Origin: a virus
Virus record (IMG/VR): IMGVR_UViG_3300032038_006501
Span: 7,889 to 71,888 of that record
DNA length: 64,000 nt
Direction: 5' to 3' (one strand)
How positions within the stretch are numbered: the stretch's first letter is position 1; every line of letters starts with the position of its first letter. A program made the translations under genes and the position numbers. The notes beneath the pieces were generated by a model, which had not been told where the DNA came from, did not search any database, and worked only from the letters and a program-made list of their open reading frames with translations. Positions 3,998 through 57,839 of the stretch are shown piece by piece.

Positions 3998-5383
3998 TTA
4001 TCGTTTTACTAAACGGAGAACTGATAGAAGTGAATCTTCAGCATCTTCCGCATTATTTGTATTATCTAAAGAGAAAGACATTAGAGGAGATTCTTCCTCG
4101 ACTTCTTCTTCTTTCTCTGGAAGTCCATCAACAGTTGAAAAATCTACATTCTTACGAACATAAATAAGAGCTAATTTCTCTTCAATTTGATCAAGAGAAA
4201 ACTCTTCTTTATGAGCAATAATATCTGCCTTATCTGCATCTGTAAGCATATGATATTTAGCAATTAAAGCATCTTTTTGCTGATTTTCAAAAGAAAGTTT
4301 GAAAGCTCGAAGTTCTTCAAGCTCTTTTTGAATAGCAGAAAACTCTTCTACAGAAACAGTATGTTGCTCAAGATTCTTTTTACCTTTATCAACATCTGAA
4401 TTAGTTCCTTCATCATTTTGTTCTAATTCTTCATCATCATCTTGATCATCATCATCATTTTGATCATCATCATCTTGATTATCATCATCATTTTGTGTAT
4501 CATCTTGAGAATCTGTAGTATCATTCTGATTATCGGTGTCATTGCCATCTCCGGTGTTATCACCACCGTCTCCGCCGTCTCCACCATCATCAAATTGAGT
4601 TTCTACAAATTGAGTTTCAATTTCTTGTTTTGTTTCAACTTCTTTTTCTTCAAATTGAGTTTCTTGATTATCGTTCACTGTCACCCCTCCTTTACTGTAT
4701 AGAGTTTGATTTAATTCTTGTACCATAGCGAACAATTTAGCAGTAAATTCACTATCCTTAGAAAATTGATTCTCTACATCAGTAATAGAGGCTCCTTCAA
4801 AACAAGGTTCGACATTATCTCCAAGAATACACAATTTGGAAAATACCGCATCATTAATTATAAAAAATTCCATTCCTGAGTTATTGTCTGTTGCCCAGTG
4901 ACCTTCTAAATTTTTATTATCTAATTCCATAGATTGACCTTTACCCTCATCAATTACTTGTTGAGCTTCTGGGTATTGATCTACTCATAGATAACCAGTT
5001 GTTAAAAGATATTCTCTTTCAATTTCATTGCCAAATTCATCTGTATCAGTAAAAGTTTGAAACCAAATGCGAGCATCTGGAGCTACAAAACCATAAGGAA
5101 CAGTTTTACAAGAGAAATGAATTTCTCCATCTTCTATAGTAATTACATCTCCATGATCGCCAAAATCTTCTTTATCTTTAAGATAAGCTCCAACAATTGG
5201 GCATCCCCGCAAAGTTTTTGACATTTCAAGAGCTGCATTCTTATCAATATATGAACCATTACGATTTTTACCGAGATAAAATACTTTAATTTGACATTGG
5301 GCCATTAGAGGATTGATATCAAGTGGAGTTAACTCGATAAACTCCGGATCAGCAATTGTTTTAATTGATCTATTATTATTCAT
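3998..5383 (-). CDS. putative scaffolding-like protein; acidic low-complexity (DGGDGGDGGD..., D/N/Q-rich) plus a coiled-coil C-terminus
   Basis: Track ORFs 4985..5383 and 3998..4930 are in the same frame and joined by TGA; strongly acidic repeats. The 4442..4702 plus-strand poly-Ile ORF is a mirror artefact of this gene. Confidence 0.45.
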
Positions 5384-5391
5384 CTACCCTC

Positions 5392-6936
5392 CTAACCTTC
5401 TGCTTGTTCATTTCTAATTGTTTTATCTGATTTTTCACTTTCTGGTAGTTCTGGTCTGCCAGTTTTCTTTTCAGATTCTCCAGCTTTAGGAGCCTCTTTA
5501 GCACTCATCGTTGAGGACATTTGAGGTGGAATAAATAATTCATCTAAATGCATCATTCCATTTTCAAAAATAGCAGTAGCAATAATACTACTTTGAGTTT
5601 GTCCAAGAGCAACTTGAGGAAGAAGCTTAGAGAAACCAATTGTAGTTTGCTCTTTATAGAGCTTAGATAATTCTTTATAATTATATCCTGTTGTTGGAAG
5701 AATTTGAACACGATACATTAAACGCTTTTTATTTTTATTAAATGGTTTTAATAAATCTTCTGCATATTCTTCAAATTGATAAATTAAATCAAGAACACTT
5801 GATTCATCATTTACAATAGACTTTTCTAATGCAACATTTCCATCTGCATTAAATTGTAACTGAGAAACACCAGCCTCATTATACACACCACGTTCAACTT
5901 TTCCAAGTTGATCAACAGAACTTACATTATTGCGGTCTGCCATATCTGCAACCTCTACATCTGCAAATGTTGACAAGACTCGCACACCAATAGACTCACC
6001 AACCATACCTACTGCATTATTATGAAGAGTTTGTACTTCATCAGTATCAAAAATTAAATCTCCATTTTTGTCTATTGGGAATTTTTGAATAAGAATTCTT
6101 AAAATTTGTTGTTCCATTTTTTTCTTATCTAAGTCTTGCATATCTTGTAAATCCAAGAGCTTAGGAATAACTGGGAAGAAAATAGGGACATCAGAATTTC
6201 CCAAATTAAATTTAACAGCTTTTGTGCAATCTAAAAGAAATCAACCTATATCATCATTTGATGTATCTCTTGGTAAGGCTCCTTTTTTATAAGCAATATA
6301 AGCTTTTTGAAATTCTTTAGGAAACATTTTTAAAATTTTTATACGATATTCATTATTTGATGTTAAATCATCAAAATATTTGACATTAAATTCTATTGCG
6401 GGACGACCATTTCATTTATATCTACTACGGCAATATTTAGGTGGTAATTCTTGAAGAAAAACCGCATCTTTTTGTTCTAATTTATAACCATAATAGCATC
6501 CATTTTTAATTACTTTTAAAGCAATTTCTGAAAAACTTTTCTTTAATCTTGAATTTTCAAGTAAAACTGCGGCTTTAAGCCATCCTTCAATAACTTTTTC
6601 ATCTTTTATTTTATTATCATATCTATTAGGTGTAATAAATCAGTCATATCTAAATAAGGTAGCGAGATATTTACATAATCTTTGATAAATACCATTTGAT
6701 CTATAAAAATAATCTGAGATTAATCTTAATGTTTCTAAATCATTTTTTTCAATAGCTCTTTCAATTTTTTCTCTATCATATTTCTTTTTGCGGGAAAGGC
6801 TATCAAAATAATCTAAATTTGAAACAACGTCATCTCTTAAAATTGATTTACCAACTTTAATTTTATTAAAATTAGCTTTCTTTTTTGGGGTAATTATATT
6901 AAAATCTCTGGTATTTATATTTCTTGTATAAGCCAA
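5392..6936 (-). CDS. putative portal protein (about 514 aa, several in-frame TGA codons)
   Basis: Track ORFs 6640..6936 and 5392..6204 share a frame and the interval between them is open when TGA=W. Size and position (after terminase, before scaffold) fit a portal protein. Confidence 0.45.
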
Positions 6937-7744: not shown

Positions 7745-8576
7745 TTAAATAAATATGATATTTTCTATTCAATCGAATAGAATCATTTGTATCTTTATAC
7801 ATCTGTTCAATAATAGAATTAACTATAAAACGACTATTACTTCTTAGACAATATGTAGTTGGAGATTTGATATTACGCTCTAAAGACGTTTTAATACCAG
7901 TAATTTGAGCAATTTCTGTTAATAAAGTTTTACTTCCCGTAAAAGTAATAACTAATCTATCTTTTTTAATTTTATTTTTAATATAATAAAAACCGCCATC
8001 TCCATCAAAATATCCTCTGATAAAATCCCATATAAAGATTGAATCAATATTTGGAATATGTAAATCTAAATGGTTTTTTTGAGGTTTACACCCTCACTTA
8101 ATTAAATCATCGTGAATTTGTTTATCTTTAATACTAAAAGAATAAAAATTACGAGTTAATTTATTTTTATTTTTGTCTGGTTTTAACACTGTTATTTTAT
8201 GATTATTTGCTCCAAGAAAATTTTTAAATTTTTCAACATGTTCACCATCTGAAAGACCTAATGTAATTTCGTTACTATTGAATGAAACTTTTCCATCTGC
8301 AAACATCATACCGAGCCAATAAGCCTTTTCTCTAGTATCTATATTGTTAAAGATATTTTCATAACGAGGATAGTTATGTTTATATCCTTGAGTTTTTACC
8401 TTTCGTTGATGTAATAATCGTTTAATAGATTCATATTGTACTTTAAAACGACGCCCCAATTTTTTCATGGAAGTACCGTTTTCATACTCTTTGATAATAT
8501 AATCAATTTGATCTTGTGACCAAATAATTCGACCATTATATTTATCATTTTCACGTCGAATGGTGAAGTCTATCAT
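7745..8576 (-). CDS. LAGLIDADG homing endonuclease (two motifs: LGMMFADG and GYFDGDGGF; the second lies after an in-frame TGA)
   Basis: ORF 8094..8576 plus read-through of TGA at 8094-8096; N-terminal HTH-like region. Confidence 0.6.
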
Positions 8577-54918: not shown

Positions 54919-55096
54919 TTGATATAAAAAACTTTTTGACAACTTGTCGTAAAATATTGTATAATATATTTACAGAGTCGGAAAGAGGTTAAACAAAATG
55001 TTTTGATTGAAAAAGAAAAGAAAAGAAGTCGATAGAAAAAAATAAATGACAAATGAATTAAAAACATAGTATAATATATTTAAAGAAATTGATAAT

Positions 55097-55166
55097 TCCT
55101 CATGGTGTAATTGGCAACACAATAGGTTCTGGTCCTATTATTTCACGTTCGAGTCGTGATGAGGAA
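55097..55166 (+). tRNA. tRNA-Gln (anticodon CTG)
   Basis: Manual fold: acceptor TCCTCAT/ATGAGGA, anticodon arm ATAGG-TTCTGGT-CCTAT, T arm CACG-TTCGAGT-CGTG. Confidence 0.55.
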
Positions 55167-55171
55167 GCCAT

Positions 55172-55247
55172 GGGCTTGTAATCCAACGGCAGAGATAGCA
55201 GACTTAAAATCTGTTCAGTGTGAGTTCGAATCTCACCAGGCCCACCA
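55172..55247 (+). tRNA. type-I (short variable loop) tRNA with anticodon TAA (Leu-family anticodon). Its acceptor GGGCTTG/CAGGCCC is identical to that of tRNA-Leu(TAG) at 57598.
   Basis: Manual fold: anticodon arm GCAGA-CTTAAAA-TCTGT, T arm GTGAG-TTCGAAT-CTCAC, A73, CCA encoded. Confidence 0.5.
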
Positions 55248-55368
55248 AATTTGTTTACAACAGATAAGATAGTTAAGAATAGCTACCTTAATGAAAAGTG
55301 AATAAACCTCAACCACCTGCTTATCTGTTATTTTTTATTATTGTTGTTGAGGTAGAAAGTTGAGGAAA

Positions 55369-56172
55369 ATGGCAAGACCTAAGAAAATTTATCAAAAAGG
55401 TGATAAAGTTGGTATTTGACAATTAGAATTTGTAGAAGAGGTTGAATCACATATTACTTCAGGTGGCTCTAAACATAGACAGTTTAAAGTAATTTGTCCA
55501 ACATGTCATAATATATTTATTACCAAACAAATTCAATTAAATAAAAAAGCTAAACCTGTTAAGCAATGTCCTGCTTGTTCTTTAAAAGAAAATAAAAAAA
55601 GGATATCTGAGGTAGGAAAACAAAGTAGTAATAATTTAATTGGACAAAAATTTGGTAAATTGTTAGTCTTATCTAAGACTGATAAAAGATATAGAAATAA
55701 TGTTATTTGGCATTGTAAATGTGATTGTGGTAATGAAAAAGATATTCTTGGAAGAGATTTGTTAAGAGGTCATACTATTTCTTGTGGATGTATAAAATCT
55801 CGTGGAGAAGAATTAATTAGTAATATTTTAAAAGAAATGAATGTTTCTTTTGAAAAAGAAAAAACATTTATAGATTGTGTGAATCCTAAAACTAATTTTT
55901 TATTAAGATTTGATTTTTACTTACCTGATTACAATATTATTATAGAGTATGATGGCGAACAACATTTTAAATATAATGATACAGGATGAAATACTAAAGA
56001 AAATTTTAAACAAACTATTTATAGAGATAATATTAAAAATAATTATTGTAAAAATAATAATATTAAATTAATTAGAATACCTTATACAGATTTTAATAAA
56101 ATTAATCAAAAATATATTGTCGATCTGGCGGAATTGGCAGACGCGGTTGGCCCAAACCCAACTTCATTATAG
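55369..56172 (+). CDS. endonuclease with N-terminal Cys-rich module and C-terminal DUF559/Vsr-like domain (IIIEYDGEQHFKYND); 2 TGA codons; 3' end overlaps tRNA-Leu(CAA)
   Basis: ORF 55660..55989 extended across TGA codons; paralog of 7014..7397. Confidence 0.5.
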
Positions 56173-56203
56173 AGTGAGAGTTCAAGTCTCTCGATCGACA
56201 CCA
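56119..56203 (+). tRNA. tRNA-Leu (anticodon CAA), type II
   Basis: Acceptor GTCGATC/GATCGAC, anticodon arm GTTGG-CCCAAAC-CCAAC, long variable arm, T arm GAGAG-TTCAAGT-CTCTC, A73 plus CCA. Confidence 0.55.
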
Positions 56204-56219
56204 AAATGTTAATAATAAT

Positions 56220-56351
56220 TTGACGTGATAGTTAAAACAGTTACTTCTCTGAGATTAGCTCAATTGGTAGAGCGTTTGTTTTAGGTACAAAGTGTAATAG
56301 GTTCGAATCCTATATTTTAGATTTTATACCTGTTTTATAGATTTCCGTCAA
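56220..56351 (+). ncRNA. structured RNA cassette U1 (Y-RNA-like family): helix I TTGACG/CGTCAA, conserved internal loop TGATAGT / TAGATTTC, helix II TAAAACAG/CTGTTTTA, conserved TTACTTC; cargo is tRNA(TAG)
   Basis: Family of 8 units with compensatory changes in both helices (see findings). Confidence 0.55.
56249..56321 (+). tRNA. type-I tRNA with anticodon TAG (Leu-family anticodon but short variable loop)
   Basis: D arm GCTC-AATTGGTA-GAGC, anticodon arm TTTGT-TTTAGGT-ACAAA, T arm ATAGG-TTCGAAT-CCTAT. Confidence 0.5.
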
Positions 56352-56364
56352 TTTTAAATGAAAT

Positions 56365-56460
56365 AGGCGGTGCTGCCTATCCGGCGATAGGGACGGGCTT
56401 CAAACCCGTTTAGTCAGGTCCAAACTGGCTCGTGGGGATCGACACCTCCACCGCCTGCCA
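56365..56460 (+). tRNA. tRNA with anticodon TCA (reads UGA): candidate opal suppressor with tRNA-Sec/allo-tRNA-like architecture (8-bp acceptor AGGCGGTG/CACCGCCT, 6-bp D stem CCTATC/GATAGG with 4-nt loop, anticodon arm ACGGG-CTTCAAA-CCCGT, long variable arm, G73, CCA)
   Basis: Manual fold; the anticodon loop is identical to the E. coli selC loop CTTCAAA; about 96 nt long. Confidence 0.55.
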
Positions 56461-56469
56461 TCGTAAATA

Positions 56470-56553
56470 AAGCGTGATAGTAAGAAAGTTACTTCGCACA
56501 TAATGCAACAGACTCTTAATCTGTTAATAACACTTTCTTTATTATTTCCGCTA
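56470..56553 (+). ncRNA. structured RNA cassette U2 (helix I AGCG/CGCT, helix II AAGAAAGT/ACTTTCTT); cargo is a degenerate tRNA-Lys-like anticodon hairpin (ACAGA-CTCTTAA-TCTGT)
   Basis: Covariation relative to U1/U4. Confidence 0.5.
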
Positions 56554-56586
56554 ATATTAAATATTTATTGGTGAGAATAAATATTT

Positions 56587-56665
56587 AGTAAGATGATTGT
56601 AAGAAAGATACTTCAACTCATAAACAGTTACGGCATAGAGCTTTCTTTCTTAAAAATATCTCTTA
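56587..56665 (+). ncRNA. structured RNA cassette U3 (helix I GTAAGA/TCTTAC, helix II TAAGAAAG/CTTTCTTA); short cargo
   Basis: Covariation. Confidence 0.45.
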
Positions 56666-56684
56666 CATTCAGTTTATTAATAAT

Positions 56685-56812
56685 TTGACGTGATAGTTGA
56701 AATAGTTACTTCATATTTAACTCAATGGGTAGAGTAATTATCTTGTAAATAATCTGTTATTGGTTCGAGTCCAATGATATGTGTTTTTCACTATTTCATA
56801 AATTTCCGTCAA
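56685..56812 (+). ncRNA. structured RNA cassette U4 (helix I TTGACG/CGTCAA, helix II GAAATAGT/ACTATTTC); cargo is tRNA-Thr(TGT)
   Basis: Covariation. Confidence 0.55.
56711..56783 (+). tRNA. tRNA-Thr (anticodon TGT)
   Basis: D arm ACTC-AATGGGTA-GAGT, anticodon arm ATTAT-CTTGTAA-ATAAT, T arm ATTGG-TTCGAGT-CCAAT. Confidence 0.55.
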
Positions 56813-56820
56813 TTTTTTAT

Positions 56821-56896
56821 GGGTTGTTAGCTCAGTTGGTAGAGCAGAGGACTCTTAATCCTAAGGCCCAGGGTTCGAATCCCTGACAACCCACCA
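56821..56896 (+). tRNA. tRNA-Lys (anticodon CTT)
   Basis: Acceptor GGGTTGT/ACAACCC, D arm GCTC-AGTTGGTA-GAGC, loop CTCTTAA, T arm CAGGG-TTCGAAT-CCCTG, CCA. Confidence 0.6.
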
Positions 56897-56904
56897 TCGG
56901 AAAT

Positions 56905-56981
56905 CTGCCCATGGCGCAACTTGGTAGCGCTCATGATTTGGGTTCATGGGGTTCTCTGTTCGAATCAGAGTGGGCAGACCA
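56905..56981 (+). tRNA. tRNA-Pro (anticodon TGG)
   Basis: Acceptor CTGCCCA/TGGGCAG, anticodon arm CATGA-TTTGGGT-TCATG, T arm CTCTG-TTCGAAT-CAGAG, CCA. Confidence 0.6.
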
Positions 56982-56990
56982 TGGGCTGAG

Positions 56991-57058
56991 GGACTGCTAG
57001 GAGTGGTCACCTGTCTTGCAAACAGGAAAGCAGCTGGGTTCGAATCCCAGTCGGTCCA
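56991..57058 (+). tRNA. tRNA, probably Ala (anticodon TGC); D arm atypical
   Basis: Anticodon arm CCTGT-CTTGCAA-ACAGG, T arm CTGGG-TTCGAAT-CCCAG. Confidence 0.4.
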
Positions 57059-57120
57059 GAGAATAAAATTTTGGACAAAAATGAATAATTTGTAGTATAA
57101 TTTTTATATTAATATTAAAT

Positions 57121-57191
57121 TCTCTTGTAGCTCAAAAATAGAGCGCACGACTGATAATCGTGAGACAAAGGAGCGTTACTTTTCGAGAGAA
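57121..57191 (+). tRNA. tRNA-Ile (anticodon GAT)
   Basis: Acceptor TCTCTTG/CGAGAGA, anticodon arm CACGA-CTGATAA-TCGTG, unusual T loop AGCGTTA. Confidence 0.5.
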
Positions 57192-57196
57192 CTAAT

Positions 57197-57284
57197 GGGA
57201 CGGCTGCAGAGTTGGAGAACTGCGCTGGTCTGTAAAACCAGTGGCTTAAGTCCTGAGTGTGTTCGAATCACACCCGTCCCACCA
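57197..57284 (+). tRNA. tRNA-Tyr (anticodon GTA), long variable arm
   Basis: Acceptor GGGACGG/CCGTCCC, anticodon arm CTGGT-CTGTAAA-ACCAG, T arm GTGTG-TTCGAAT-CACAC, CCA. Confidence 0.6.
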
Positions 57285-57294
57285 GTATTAAAAT

Positions 57295-57369
57295 TGGAAG
57301 GTAGCTCAATGGTAGAGCCATCGGCTGTTAACCGATCTGTTGTGGGTTCGAGTCCCACCCTTTCAGCCA
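57295..57369 (+). tRNA. tRNA-Asn (anticodon GTT)
   Basis: Anticodon arm ATCGG-CTGTTAA-CCGAT, T arm GTGGG-TTCGAGT-CCCAC, CCA. Confidence 0.55.
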
Positions 57370-57370
57370 T

Positions 57371-57447
57371 GGGACTGTAGCTTAGTTGGTTTAAAGCGTC
57401 GGACTGTCTATCCGAAGATCGTGGGTTCGAATCCCATCAGTCTCGCC
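57371..57447 (+). tRNA. tRNA-Asp (anticodon GTC)
   Basis: Acceptor GGGACTG/CAGTCTC, anticodon arm TCGGA-CTGTCTA-TCCGA, CCA. Confidence 0.55.
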
Positions 57448-57452
57448 AATAT

Positions 57453-57526
57453 GGAGTCTATAGTATAATGGTTAATTATGATTGGTTGTGGCCCAATAGA
57501 TGAAAGTTTAATTCTTTCTAGATTCC
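57453..57526 (+). tRNA. tRNA-His (anticodon GTG)
   Basis: Acceptor GGAGTCT/AGATTCC, anticodon arm ATTGG-TTGTGGC-CCAAT, T arm GAAAG-TTTAATT-CTTTC. Confidence 0.5.
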
Positions 57527-57597
57527 CGGAATGCTTTGTCTAAAACCTTCACGTGGTGCATTCTGATTTCGACTAATATTAGACAATATATTATAAA

Positions 57598-57681
57598 GGG
57601 CTTGTGATGGAATTGGCAGACATGATTGCCTTAGAAGCAATTGCTTTATGCGTGGAAGTTCGAGTCTTCTCAGGCCCACCA
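57598..57681 (+). tRNA. tRNA-Leu (anticodon TAG), type II
   Basis: Acceptor GGGCTTG/CAGGCCC, anticodon arm ATTGC-CTTAGAA-GCAAT, long variable arm, CCA. Confidence 0.55.
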
Positions 57682-57702
57682 AAAATAAAAAATTTTTTTT
57701 GA

Positions 57703-57735
57703 CAGATTGAATTAAAATATAATATAATATAAATA
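57703..57735 (+). promoter_or_regulatory. sigma70-type promoter (TTGACA-17-TATAAT) preceding the GC-rich non-coding segment
   Basis: Read directly. Confidence 0.45.
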
Positions 57736-57839
57736 CAGTGAGAGAGAGAAAAAAAGTAAGAAAACGAAGTTAAAAAAAAATATTAGACAGCTGAAAAAAG
57801 AATATGATATAATATTATTAAAGAAAGGGCAAGAGCAAC

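Follow-up and report, generated by a model that had tools for sequence, protein, structure and literature searches.

Two tRNA genes in a 64,000-nucleotide (nt) stretch of phage DNA (IMG/VR record IMGVR_UViG_3300032038_006501, positions 7,889 to 71,888; hereafter, the window) combine anticodons of the leucine family with the short variable loop of type-I tRNAs. This raises the question of whether they are leucine tRNAs that do without the long variable arm or something different. We compared them with a canonical type-II tRNA-Leu of the same array and with the sister phages of the window (two in IMG/VR plus two JGI contigs), which have 93 to 96% identity to the window and carry the same array. 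The three genes are as follows (L140 is one of the sisters):

55172-55247, + strand: tRNA1, anticodon UAA, CCA encoded (called as 55172-55244/47), 57.2 bits with the Rfam tRNA model, also called by ARAGORN
56249-56321, + strand: tRNA2, anticodon UAG, no encoded CCA, 61.5 bits with the Rfam tRNA model, also called by ARAGORN
57598-57681, + strand: tRNA-Leu(UAG), type II, canonical, 84 nt, gene identical in L140

A sequence-only reading of the locus had described tRNA1 and tRNA2 as type-I paralogs of this tRNA-Leu(UAG). The description of two full-length tRNAs with Leu-family anticodons holds, since ARAGORN and the Rfam model both call them and agree on the register of the anticodon loop at both genes. 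Considering that the variable loop has only 5 nt in each (TCAGT in tRNA1, GTGTA in tRNA2), both are type I. The interpretation given to them is partly supported. We found that the two genes are unrelated to each other, and we estimate at about 75% the probability that tRNA1 is a short-arm tRNA-Leu(UAA) of a known family and tRNA2 the counterpart of a tRNA-Val(UAC) whose anticodon differs by one base. Neither of them looks like a special recoding device.

Several features point to the leucine identity of tRNA1. It carries U8:A14, the Levitt pair A15-U48, G18G19, A20a, C13.A22, and A73, and its elbow is canonical (G18G19, T54 T55 C56). We applied a register-aware test for the Leu D arm (a stem of 3 base pairs [bp], the N13.A22 mismatch, A14, and G18G19-N-A20a-N-A22), for which tRNA1 is positive and tRNA2 is negative. 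Of 24 type-II Leu tRNAs, 18 have this D arm, whereas among about 560 tRNAs of other isotypes hardly any do (one of 18 tRNA-Tyr and one of 6 tRNAs without an assigned isotype being the exceptions); a looser D-arm pattern was discarded as unspecific, since it matched many isotypes. A covariance model of type-I tRNA-Leu, built from 51 other members of the family with the query excluded, gave tRNA1 91.0 bits (E = 1e-26), with the next best tRNA of the array at 51.1 bits. The score of tRNA2 was 39.9 bits, inside the range of 15 to 51 bits of the other array tRNAs. When the anticodon was masked, the 12 nearest neighbors of tRNA1 were all type-I Leu tRNAs.

The family to which tRNA1 belongs is large. 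A pattern scan (Leu-type D loop GGCAGA, loop CTTAAAA, a short variable region, and T loop) found type-I tRNA-Leu(UAA) in at least 120 IMG/VR contigs and, with one genome per species, in at least 120 bacterial genomes, mostly of Actinomycetota; it is the sole tRNA at 102 of 118 bacterial genome loci. Among 231 members, the features that the search pattern does not impose hardly vary: U8 and A14 are invariant (231/231 each), the 3-bp D stem is present in ~100%, and C13.A22 (229/231), A73 (227/231), U48 (217/231), and the 5-nt variable loop (215/231) are close to universal. Every one of these conserved features appears in tRNA1. A BLAST search with tRNA1 matched 362 records of GenBank phages, and among the best 40 of them the gene is annotated as tRNA-Leu wherever it is annotated, with the exception of one tRNA-Gln. 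Judged by these sequence features, tRNA1 is a short-arm tRNA-Leu, a member of a common and already annotated class. In the literature searched, we found no paper treating phage type-I tRNA-Leu as a class or linking it to phages, a modest gap at the level of the class that makes this locus no more unusual.

The expectation that bacterial leucyl-tRNA synthetase (LeuRS) requires the long arm, which had made these genes seem anomalous, does not agree with what has been published on Escherichia coli. The enzyme of this species needs A73, A15-U48, G18G19, and A20a, all of them retained by tRNA1, but can do without the long arm and charges minimal substrates that have no arm (reviewed in PMC9976931), and the LeuRS of Streptomyces coelicolor charges its native type-I tRNA-Leu(CAA) (PMC6614811). 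By analogy with these systems, tRNA1 is probably leucylated by the LeuRS of its host. The proposal that the two genes are armless Leu isoacceptors is supported for tRNA1, with its Leu D arm and A73, and not for tRNA2, which was negative in the D-arm test.

The resemblance noted between tRNA1 and the resident type-II tRNA-Leu(UAG) is real. The acceptor stems (GGGCTTG/CAGGCCC, with A73 and CCA) are identical at 14 of 14 positions, which is not due to chance, since the next best of the 276 pairs formed by 24 tRNAs reaches only 11/14 (the median is 4 to 5). The D loops are also alike (AAC-GGCAGA in tRNA1, AATTGGCAGA in tRNA-Leu(UAG)), each with a 3-bp D stem and a mismatch at 13.22. However, in the core of the molecule (positions 8 to 43 and 49 to 65) tRNA1 has 61% identity to the type-II gene and a mean of 76% (maximum, 94%) to the type-I family, so that the two genes have only the acceptor stem in common. 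Since its core is nearer to the type-I family, tRNA1 is not a recent copy of the type-II gene, and a recent deletion of the arm is ruled out. At other loci, too, the acceptor stems of type-I Leu tRNAs are closer to those of the co-resident type-II Leu tRNAs than to non-Leu stems (mean of 7.3 versus 4.8 of 14 positions; Mann-Whitney P = 1.5e-4, n = 17 versus 496). This suggests a shared constraint or concerted change in the acceptor stems of both types.

As for tRNA2, the same slot is occupied in all four sister-phage contigs (two sequence variants) by a tRNA-Val(UAC) to which it is identical at 71 of 73 bases, C36G and A44G being the only differences. This close orthology and the generic score on the type-I Leu model contradict its description as a paralog of tRNA-Leu. 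It has the generic D stem of 4 bp, an 8-nt D loop, no A20a, and an A15 that pairs with A48 and not with U48, although it does have A73 and U8:A14; C1:G72, U2:A71, G3:U70, G5:U68, and G37 are also present. It is the only candidate for a tRNA-Val in the window, where a canonical tRNA-Leu(UAG) is already present. Shifts of anticodon are ordinary in this array and within its normal divergence, since that of the Arg tRNA differs as well (UCU in the sister, CCU in the window).

The body of tRNA2 gives little guidance about the amino acid. Valyl-tRNA synthetase (ValRS) identifies tRNA-Val by A35, C36, and A73, and the E. coli enzyme is impaired when 3:70 is a G.U pair (PMC9976931); in tRNA2, A35 and A73 are present, position 36 is G, and the acceptor stem has G3:U70 and G5:U68. 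From the tRNA-Pro set it has C1:G72, A73, G36, and G37, with A instead of G at position 35. The hallmark of tRNA-Ala (G3:U70 plus A73) is found without the minor elements G1:C72, G2:C71, and G20. Its best BLAST matches in GenBank phages are tRNA-Pro genes with 76 to 82% identity, and an anticodon-masked vote of nearest neighbors gave Pro 7, Leu 4, and Val 1 (leave-one-out accuracy of 77%). Its D arm and anticodon stem occur elsewhere with the anticodons UGU, GAA, UAC, UAG, UUG, and GUG, among others. Once the anticodon is masked, the sequence of the body appears generic and is diagnostic of no isotype. LeuRS ignores the anticodon, and the determinants of that enzyme are missing from this body; leucylation of tRNA2 is therefore not expected, and its valylation should drop, given the dependence of ValRS on both A35 and C36.

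AT-rich type-I tRNAs with odd anticodons (UAG, AUG, UUG, or GAU), an NGGTA variable loop, and mostly no encoded CCA recur in other, GC-richer canonical phage arrays (L122 2291-2364, L123 9998-10070, L128 3926-4001, L399/L402/L430, L397, L415, and L401). Some of them adjoin normal type-II tRNA-Leu(UAG) genes.

As had been proposed, tRNA2 is the cargo of a repeated cassette, whose leader and trailer are ~90% identical to those flanking a tRNA-Thr(UGU):

56218-56352, + strand: cassette of tRNA2, with a leader (TTGACG...TAAAACAG) that pairs with the trailer (CTGTTTTA...CGTCAA)
56680-56812, + strand: paralogous cassette, carrying tRNA-Thr(UGU) at 56711-56783

Each cassette has two leader/trailer helices, TTGACG/CGTCAA and a second one that reads TAAAACAG/CTGTTTTA in one cassette and TGAAATAG/CTATTTCA in the other. 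The paralogs differ in this second helix by two compensatory changes. Both helices occur in the minimum-energy folds (z = -2.8 for the cassette of tRNA2), and in these predicted structures the leader and trailer look like a processing stem around the pre-tRNA. Degenerate copies of the cassette lie at ~56470-56660, including an isolated hairpin resembling an anticodon arm (ACAGACTCTTAATCTGT).

The use of either gene as a decoy or for recoding had also been suggested, and of this we found no sign. The CUN codons of the window that differ in the sisters are nearly all other Leu codons there, chiefly TTA, and never Val; because these positions align with Leu codons of the sisters, nothing indicates that CUN is recoded. 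Among the Leu codons, CUU is in heavy use (28 per 1,000), and TTA is the top one (37 per 1,000 codons). The choice of Leu codons does differ between classes of genes, a check that had been proposed: TTA makes up 53% of the Leu codons in open reading frames (ORFs) with at least two TGA codons versus 33% in TGA-free ORFs (chi-square P = 7e-9). Examples of long TGA-free ORFs are those at 30794-33217 and 41729-43522, and the tail-fiber-like ORFs hold six or seven TGA codons.

Taken together, the following sequence of events may be proposed. tRNA1 would have arrived within a segment of ~1 kb that also holds a homing-endonuclease gene and is lacking in the sisters. Going by consensus matches at ~54.9 to 55.1 kb, it is probably cotranscribed with a tRNA-Gln gene. 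Published identity rules make it probable that the host LeuRS charges it via A73, U8:A14, A15-U48, G18G19, A20a, and the elbow. The charged tRNA1 would read UUA (and UUG), UUA being the commonest Leu codon of the phage. In tRNA2, a single base change at position 36 would give a tRNA-Val(UAC) counterpart its UAG anticodon, leaving a gene that is most likely recently crippled or nearly neutral and that would act, at most, as a weak missense tRNA at CUN codons.

Some observations weigh against this account. The identity of the acceptor stems of tRNA1 and the type-II tRNA-Leu(UAG) at all 14 positions is unexplained by it. The type-I tRNA-Leu(CAA) of S. coelicolor was not charged by E. coli LeuRS (PMC6614811), and the charging of tRNA1 therefore depends on the enzyme of the host. 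tRNA2 is structurally intact, with an Rfam score above that of tRNA1 (61.5 versus 57.2 bits), and it combines A73 with G3:U70, a pair found in 25 of 28 tRNA-Ala but only in 18 of 1,220 other tRNAs. Moreover, two of the sister genomes are 98% identical to one another and 94% identical to the window, which is their outgroup, so that parsimony gives no direction for the change of the anticodon. A more distant relative with the cassette did not appear in our scans: an exact search for the cassette leader returned the two sister contigs only; a looser leader pattern gave 93 loci, where those listed had single matches (taken as chance) except for the two sisters with three each; the 5' half of tRNA2, used as the query, brought in just one more contig, L125, which is GC-rich and unrelated; and a search with neighboring proteins led to the same two sister contigs. 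One metagenome scan yielded two further contigs, both with UAC at the cassette slot.

The lack of a direction leaves some room for UAG as the ancestral anticodon of the cassette tRNA, with a switch to UAC in the sister clade and tRNA2 as a long-standing gene and not a fresh mutant. Similar AT-rich type-I UAG tRNAs exist elsewhere (L125, which shares the 5' half, and L128). We regard this as doubtful, considering that the UAC form is a coherent tRNA-Val (A35, C36, A73) and the UAG form fits no identity set, that a nearly identical variable loop and T arm are found in the canonical tRNA-Val(UAC) of L432, and that the window has its tRNA-Leu(UAG) and otherwise no tRNA-Val. It is unlikely that tRNA2 works as an active missense or recoding tRNA that inserts Val, Ala, or Pro at CUN codons. 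Routes for its charging can be conceived, by residual recognition by ValRS, as Ala through G3:U70 and A73 (rare outside tRNA-Ala, as said above), or as Pro through C1:G72, A73, G36, and G37, in line with the tRNA-Pro genes among its top BLAST matches; its cloverleaf is intact, its Rfam score is in the second-highest class of the array, and type-I UAG tRNAs with non-Leu bodies adjoin canonical type-II Leu(UAG) genes in unrelated arrays (L122, L123, and L128). However, UAG is seen in this one genome only, the codons that differ in the sisters give no CUN-to-Val, -Ala, or -Pro signal, and efficient missense would be costly because CUU is so heavily used. By established identity rules, C1:G72 and U2:A71 are a poor context for alanyl-tRNA synthetase (AlaRS), and A35 removes a major determinant of prolyl-tRNA synthetase. 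A bolder version, which we hold to be quite improbable, is that the cassette tRNA, with UAG here and UAC in the sisters, accepts alanine through G3:U70 and A73, its anticodon being free to shift, as a deliberate, phage-encoded mistranslation. If true, Ala (or residual Val) would be inserted at Val or Leu codons, as AlaRS ignores the anticodon, and the AT-rich, odd-anticodon tRNAs of other phage arrays would be the same device. Least credible is a sequencing or assembly error behind the UAG anticodon: it is a single-base difference in one assembly, but the window differs from the sisters by ~6% overall, tRNA2 has a second substitution (A44G), and the array tRNAs differ from those of the sisters by 0 to 21 substitutions per gene, many of them compensatory, which makes a real substitution the simpler reading.

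The view that both genes derive from type-II tRNA-Leu by loss of the arm and are both leucylated, tRNA2 being a second Leu(UAG), also seems very improbable. [quoted passage not shown] Nevertheless, the D arm of tRNA2 (4-bp stem, 8-nt loop without A20a), its A15-A48 pair, its generic score on the type-I Leu model, the UAC of its orthologs, and the varied anticodons (UUG, UAC, GUG, UGU, and GAA) of the nearest tRNA2-like bodies all argue otherwise, as does the core of tRNA1, with its lower identity to the type-II gene. The short arm of tRNA1 could instead be kept to escape host nucleases or toxins that recognize type-II tRNAs, i.e., as counter-defense and not as simple codon supply. The family is very common in the arrays of phages whose hosts already have type-II tRNA-Leu, phage tRNAs evade anticodon nucleases (PMC10264068), and the eukaryotic Schlafen 11 targets type-II tRNAs (as cited in PMC13056530). 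We find this improbable as well: the literature searched documents no bacterial nuclease with specificity for the long arm, many Actinomycetota carry type-I tRNA-Leu(UAA) on the chromosome as an ordinary single gene (the 102 of 118 loci mentioned), and the supply of UUA-reading tRNA alone accounts for tRNA1. We favor a short-arm tRNA-Leu(UAA) of a known family for tRNA1 and an anticodon variant of tRNA-Val for tRNA2.

The surroundings of tRNA1 differ from those in the sister phages and contain the following elements:

54936-54965 and 55046-55075, + strand: two sigma-70-like promoter matches (12/12 and 11/12 to the consensus), just upstream of tRNA-Gln and tRNA1
55096-55170, + strand: tRNA-Gln(CUG), ending 1 nt before tRNA1; last block shared with the sisters before the swapped segment
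55171-56173, + strand: segment without sister counterpart, with tRNA1, the endonuclease ORF, and most of tRNA-Leu(CAA); L140 has 4540-5373 instead
55371-56172, + strand: free-standing homing-endonuclease ORF (TGA read as Trp), its 3' end overlapping tRNA-Leu(CAA)
56119-56203, + strand: tRNA-Leu(CAA), type II, canonical and intron-less, 47.2 bits (Rfam)

BLAST similarity to the sisters ends at 55170, after tRNA-Gln, and restarts at 56174, inside the T arm of tRNA-Leu(CAA). The endonuclease ORF matches phrog_559 (HNH endonuclease, 2.6e-38) and phrog_9084 (homing endonuclease, 6e-30), and its BLAST matches are annotated as homing or HNH endonucleases. At this slot the sisters have a different tRNA-Leu(CAA), the anticodon loop of which is interrupted by ~790 nt with an HNH ORF; in L140 the interrupted gene is at 4541-5404 (the slot equivalent to 55171-56203 of the window), and its ORF belongs to phrog_10822 (7e-51). 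The interruption resembles a group I intron, but none was called there by Rfam at the gathering threshold, and we refer to it as intron-like. Given the breaks of similarity at 55170 and 56174 and the matches of both ORFs to homing or HNH PHROGs, tRNA1 lies in an endonuclease-associated swapped segment. We also considered that tRNA1 and the endonuclease might travel together as a module; however, of the 38 homologs that the endonuclease has in IMG/VR, the 13 closest were scanned, and 12 of these lack a neighboring tRNA, the other one being near a type-II tRNA-Leu. Since the homologs scanned show no linkage to tRNAs, we reject a conserved mobile module.

The window as a whole is phage-like, with a low GC content (~30%) and ORFs that include portal-like and tail-fiber-like proteins. 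Reading through TGA raises its coding capacity from 44 to 69 kb, and TGA codons exchange with TGG in the sister phages, which indicates that TGA means Trp. One ORF (39918-41402, + strand) has a TROVE (Ro60-like) domain, and another (30794-33217, + strand) has matches to the major vault protein (MVP) shoulder and to SPFH; they are found in the same phage as the tRNA array and a ROOL RNA. The array itself is listed here with its less common elements:

55096-61925, + strand: tRNA array, with 24 tRNAs called by ARAGORN and one called by Rfam only
56365-56460, + strand: tRNA with anticodon UCA, D stem of 6 bp, loop of 4 nt, and long variable arm
57121-57191, + strand: tRNA-like gene with the anticodon loop CTGATAA (GAU, Ile), 49.5 bits with Rfam, no ARAGORN call, T arm weakened
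59405-60052, + strand: ROOL RNA, 292 bits, conserved in L140 (298 bits)
61677-61767, + strand: tRNA-Ile(UAU) of 91 nt, ~15 nt longer than the ordinary type-I tRNAs of the array

With 50 bits against a gathering threshold of 47, the UCA tRNA fits the tRNA-Sec model of Rfam; however, TGA means Trp in this phage, given its exchanges with TGG. This slot holds another UCA tRNA in the sister phages, one that is Trp-like (A1:U72, G73) and likewise has a long variable arm. The ortholog of the 57121-57191 gene in L140 is called as tRNA-Ile(GAU) and has CCA, and a long tRNA-Ile(UAU) similar to that of the window (94 nt) is found in the unrelated phage array L123 (1170-1263). The content of the array varies among these close relatives: the Arg anticodon is CCU in the window (58991-59067) and UCU in L140 (8546-8622), and tRNA-Phe(GAA) and tRNA-Ser(GGA) are present in the sister and missing or degraded in the window (~60369-60458 in the window versus 10024-10115 in L140; 6566-6641 in L140).

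For the window itself there is little at stake, tRNA1 being an ordinary member of its class and tRNA2 a one-base anticodon variant of tRNA-Val. The class may be of some interest to specialists, since short-arm tRNA-Leu genes in which the Leu D arm is fully conserved, along with A73 and U48, abound in Actinomycetota and in phages that infect many hosts, coliphages among them. The charging of the phage genes in hosts such as E. coli is a directly testable question. Differences of anticodon between sisters, such as Val UAC versus UAG and Arg UCU versus CCU, mean that phage arrays may show anticodon shifts in progress.

Parallels for parts of this locus are found in several known systems. The homing endonuclease SegB of phage T4 is encoded in a tRNA gene cluster. 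The window is similar in having a free-standing endonuclease gene among tRNA genes, within a segment that differs among close relatives, although the IMG/VR homologs of the window endonuclease mostly do not adjoin tRNA genes. tRNA2 resembles the first step of alloacceptor remolding, in which a tRNA passes to another codon family by point mutation of its anticodon (Sahyoun et al. 2015, PMC4783518): by a single anticodon change, it is nearer to another acceptor family (its Val(UAC) orthologs) than to any Leu tRNA. However, remolding as defined involves the duplication of a gene, after which the old one is lost and the product is functional (PMC4783518). In the case of tRNA2 there is no duplication, tRNA-Leu(UAG) is already present, and function is doubtful, since neither LeuRS nor ValRS should accept it well.

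With regard to tRNA1, the mitochondrial type-I tRNA-Leu(UUR) shares its short variable loop, and mitochondrial Leu identity relies on A73 and A14 (PMC9976931), but the mitochondrial molecule is floppy and degenerate and has a dedicated LeuRS, whereas the elbow of tRNA1 is canonical. The closest studied relative is the type-I tRNA-Leu(CAA) of S. coelicolor (Fan et al. [quoted passage not shown] A single LeuRS leucylates it with U8:A14, present in tRNA1, as a determinant, while A73 is not a determinant and E. coli LeuRS could not charge it (PMC6614811). That work, the only biochemical study we found, treats the coexistence of type-I and type-II genes as rare. Unlike the S. coelicolor tRNA, tRNA1 has the anticodon UAA, is phage encoded, and is AT-rich; in the phage loci examined, 11 of 16 type-I genes with the anticodon CAA share this Leu D arm. 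Among cultured phages, LP65 (Lactobacillus), wV8 (Felix O1-like), P-SSM7 (Prochlorococcus), and Streptomyces phages code for genes annotated as tRNA-Leu that are 81 to 89% identical to most of tRNA1. These genes have 73 to 78 nt (three of 73 to 74 nt in LP65 and two of 77 to 78 nt in wV8), with the D arm of tRNA1 and A73; their acceptor stems differ, and none has that of tRNA1. The class of tRNA1 is thus already known: type-I tRNA-Leu has been studied in S. coelicolor, and its genes are annotated in many phages.

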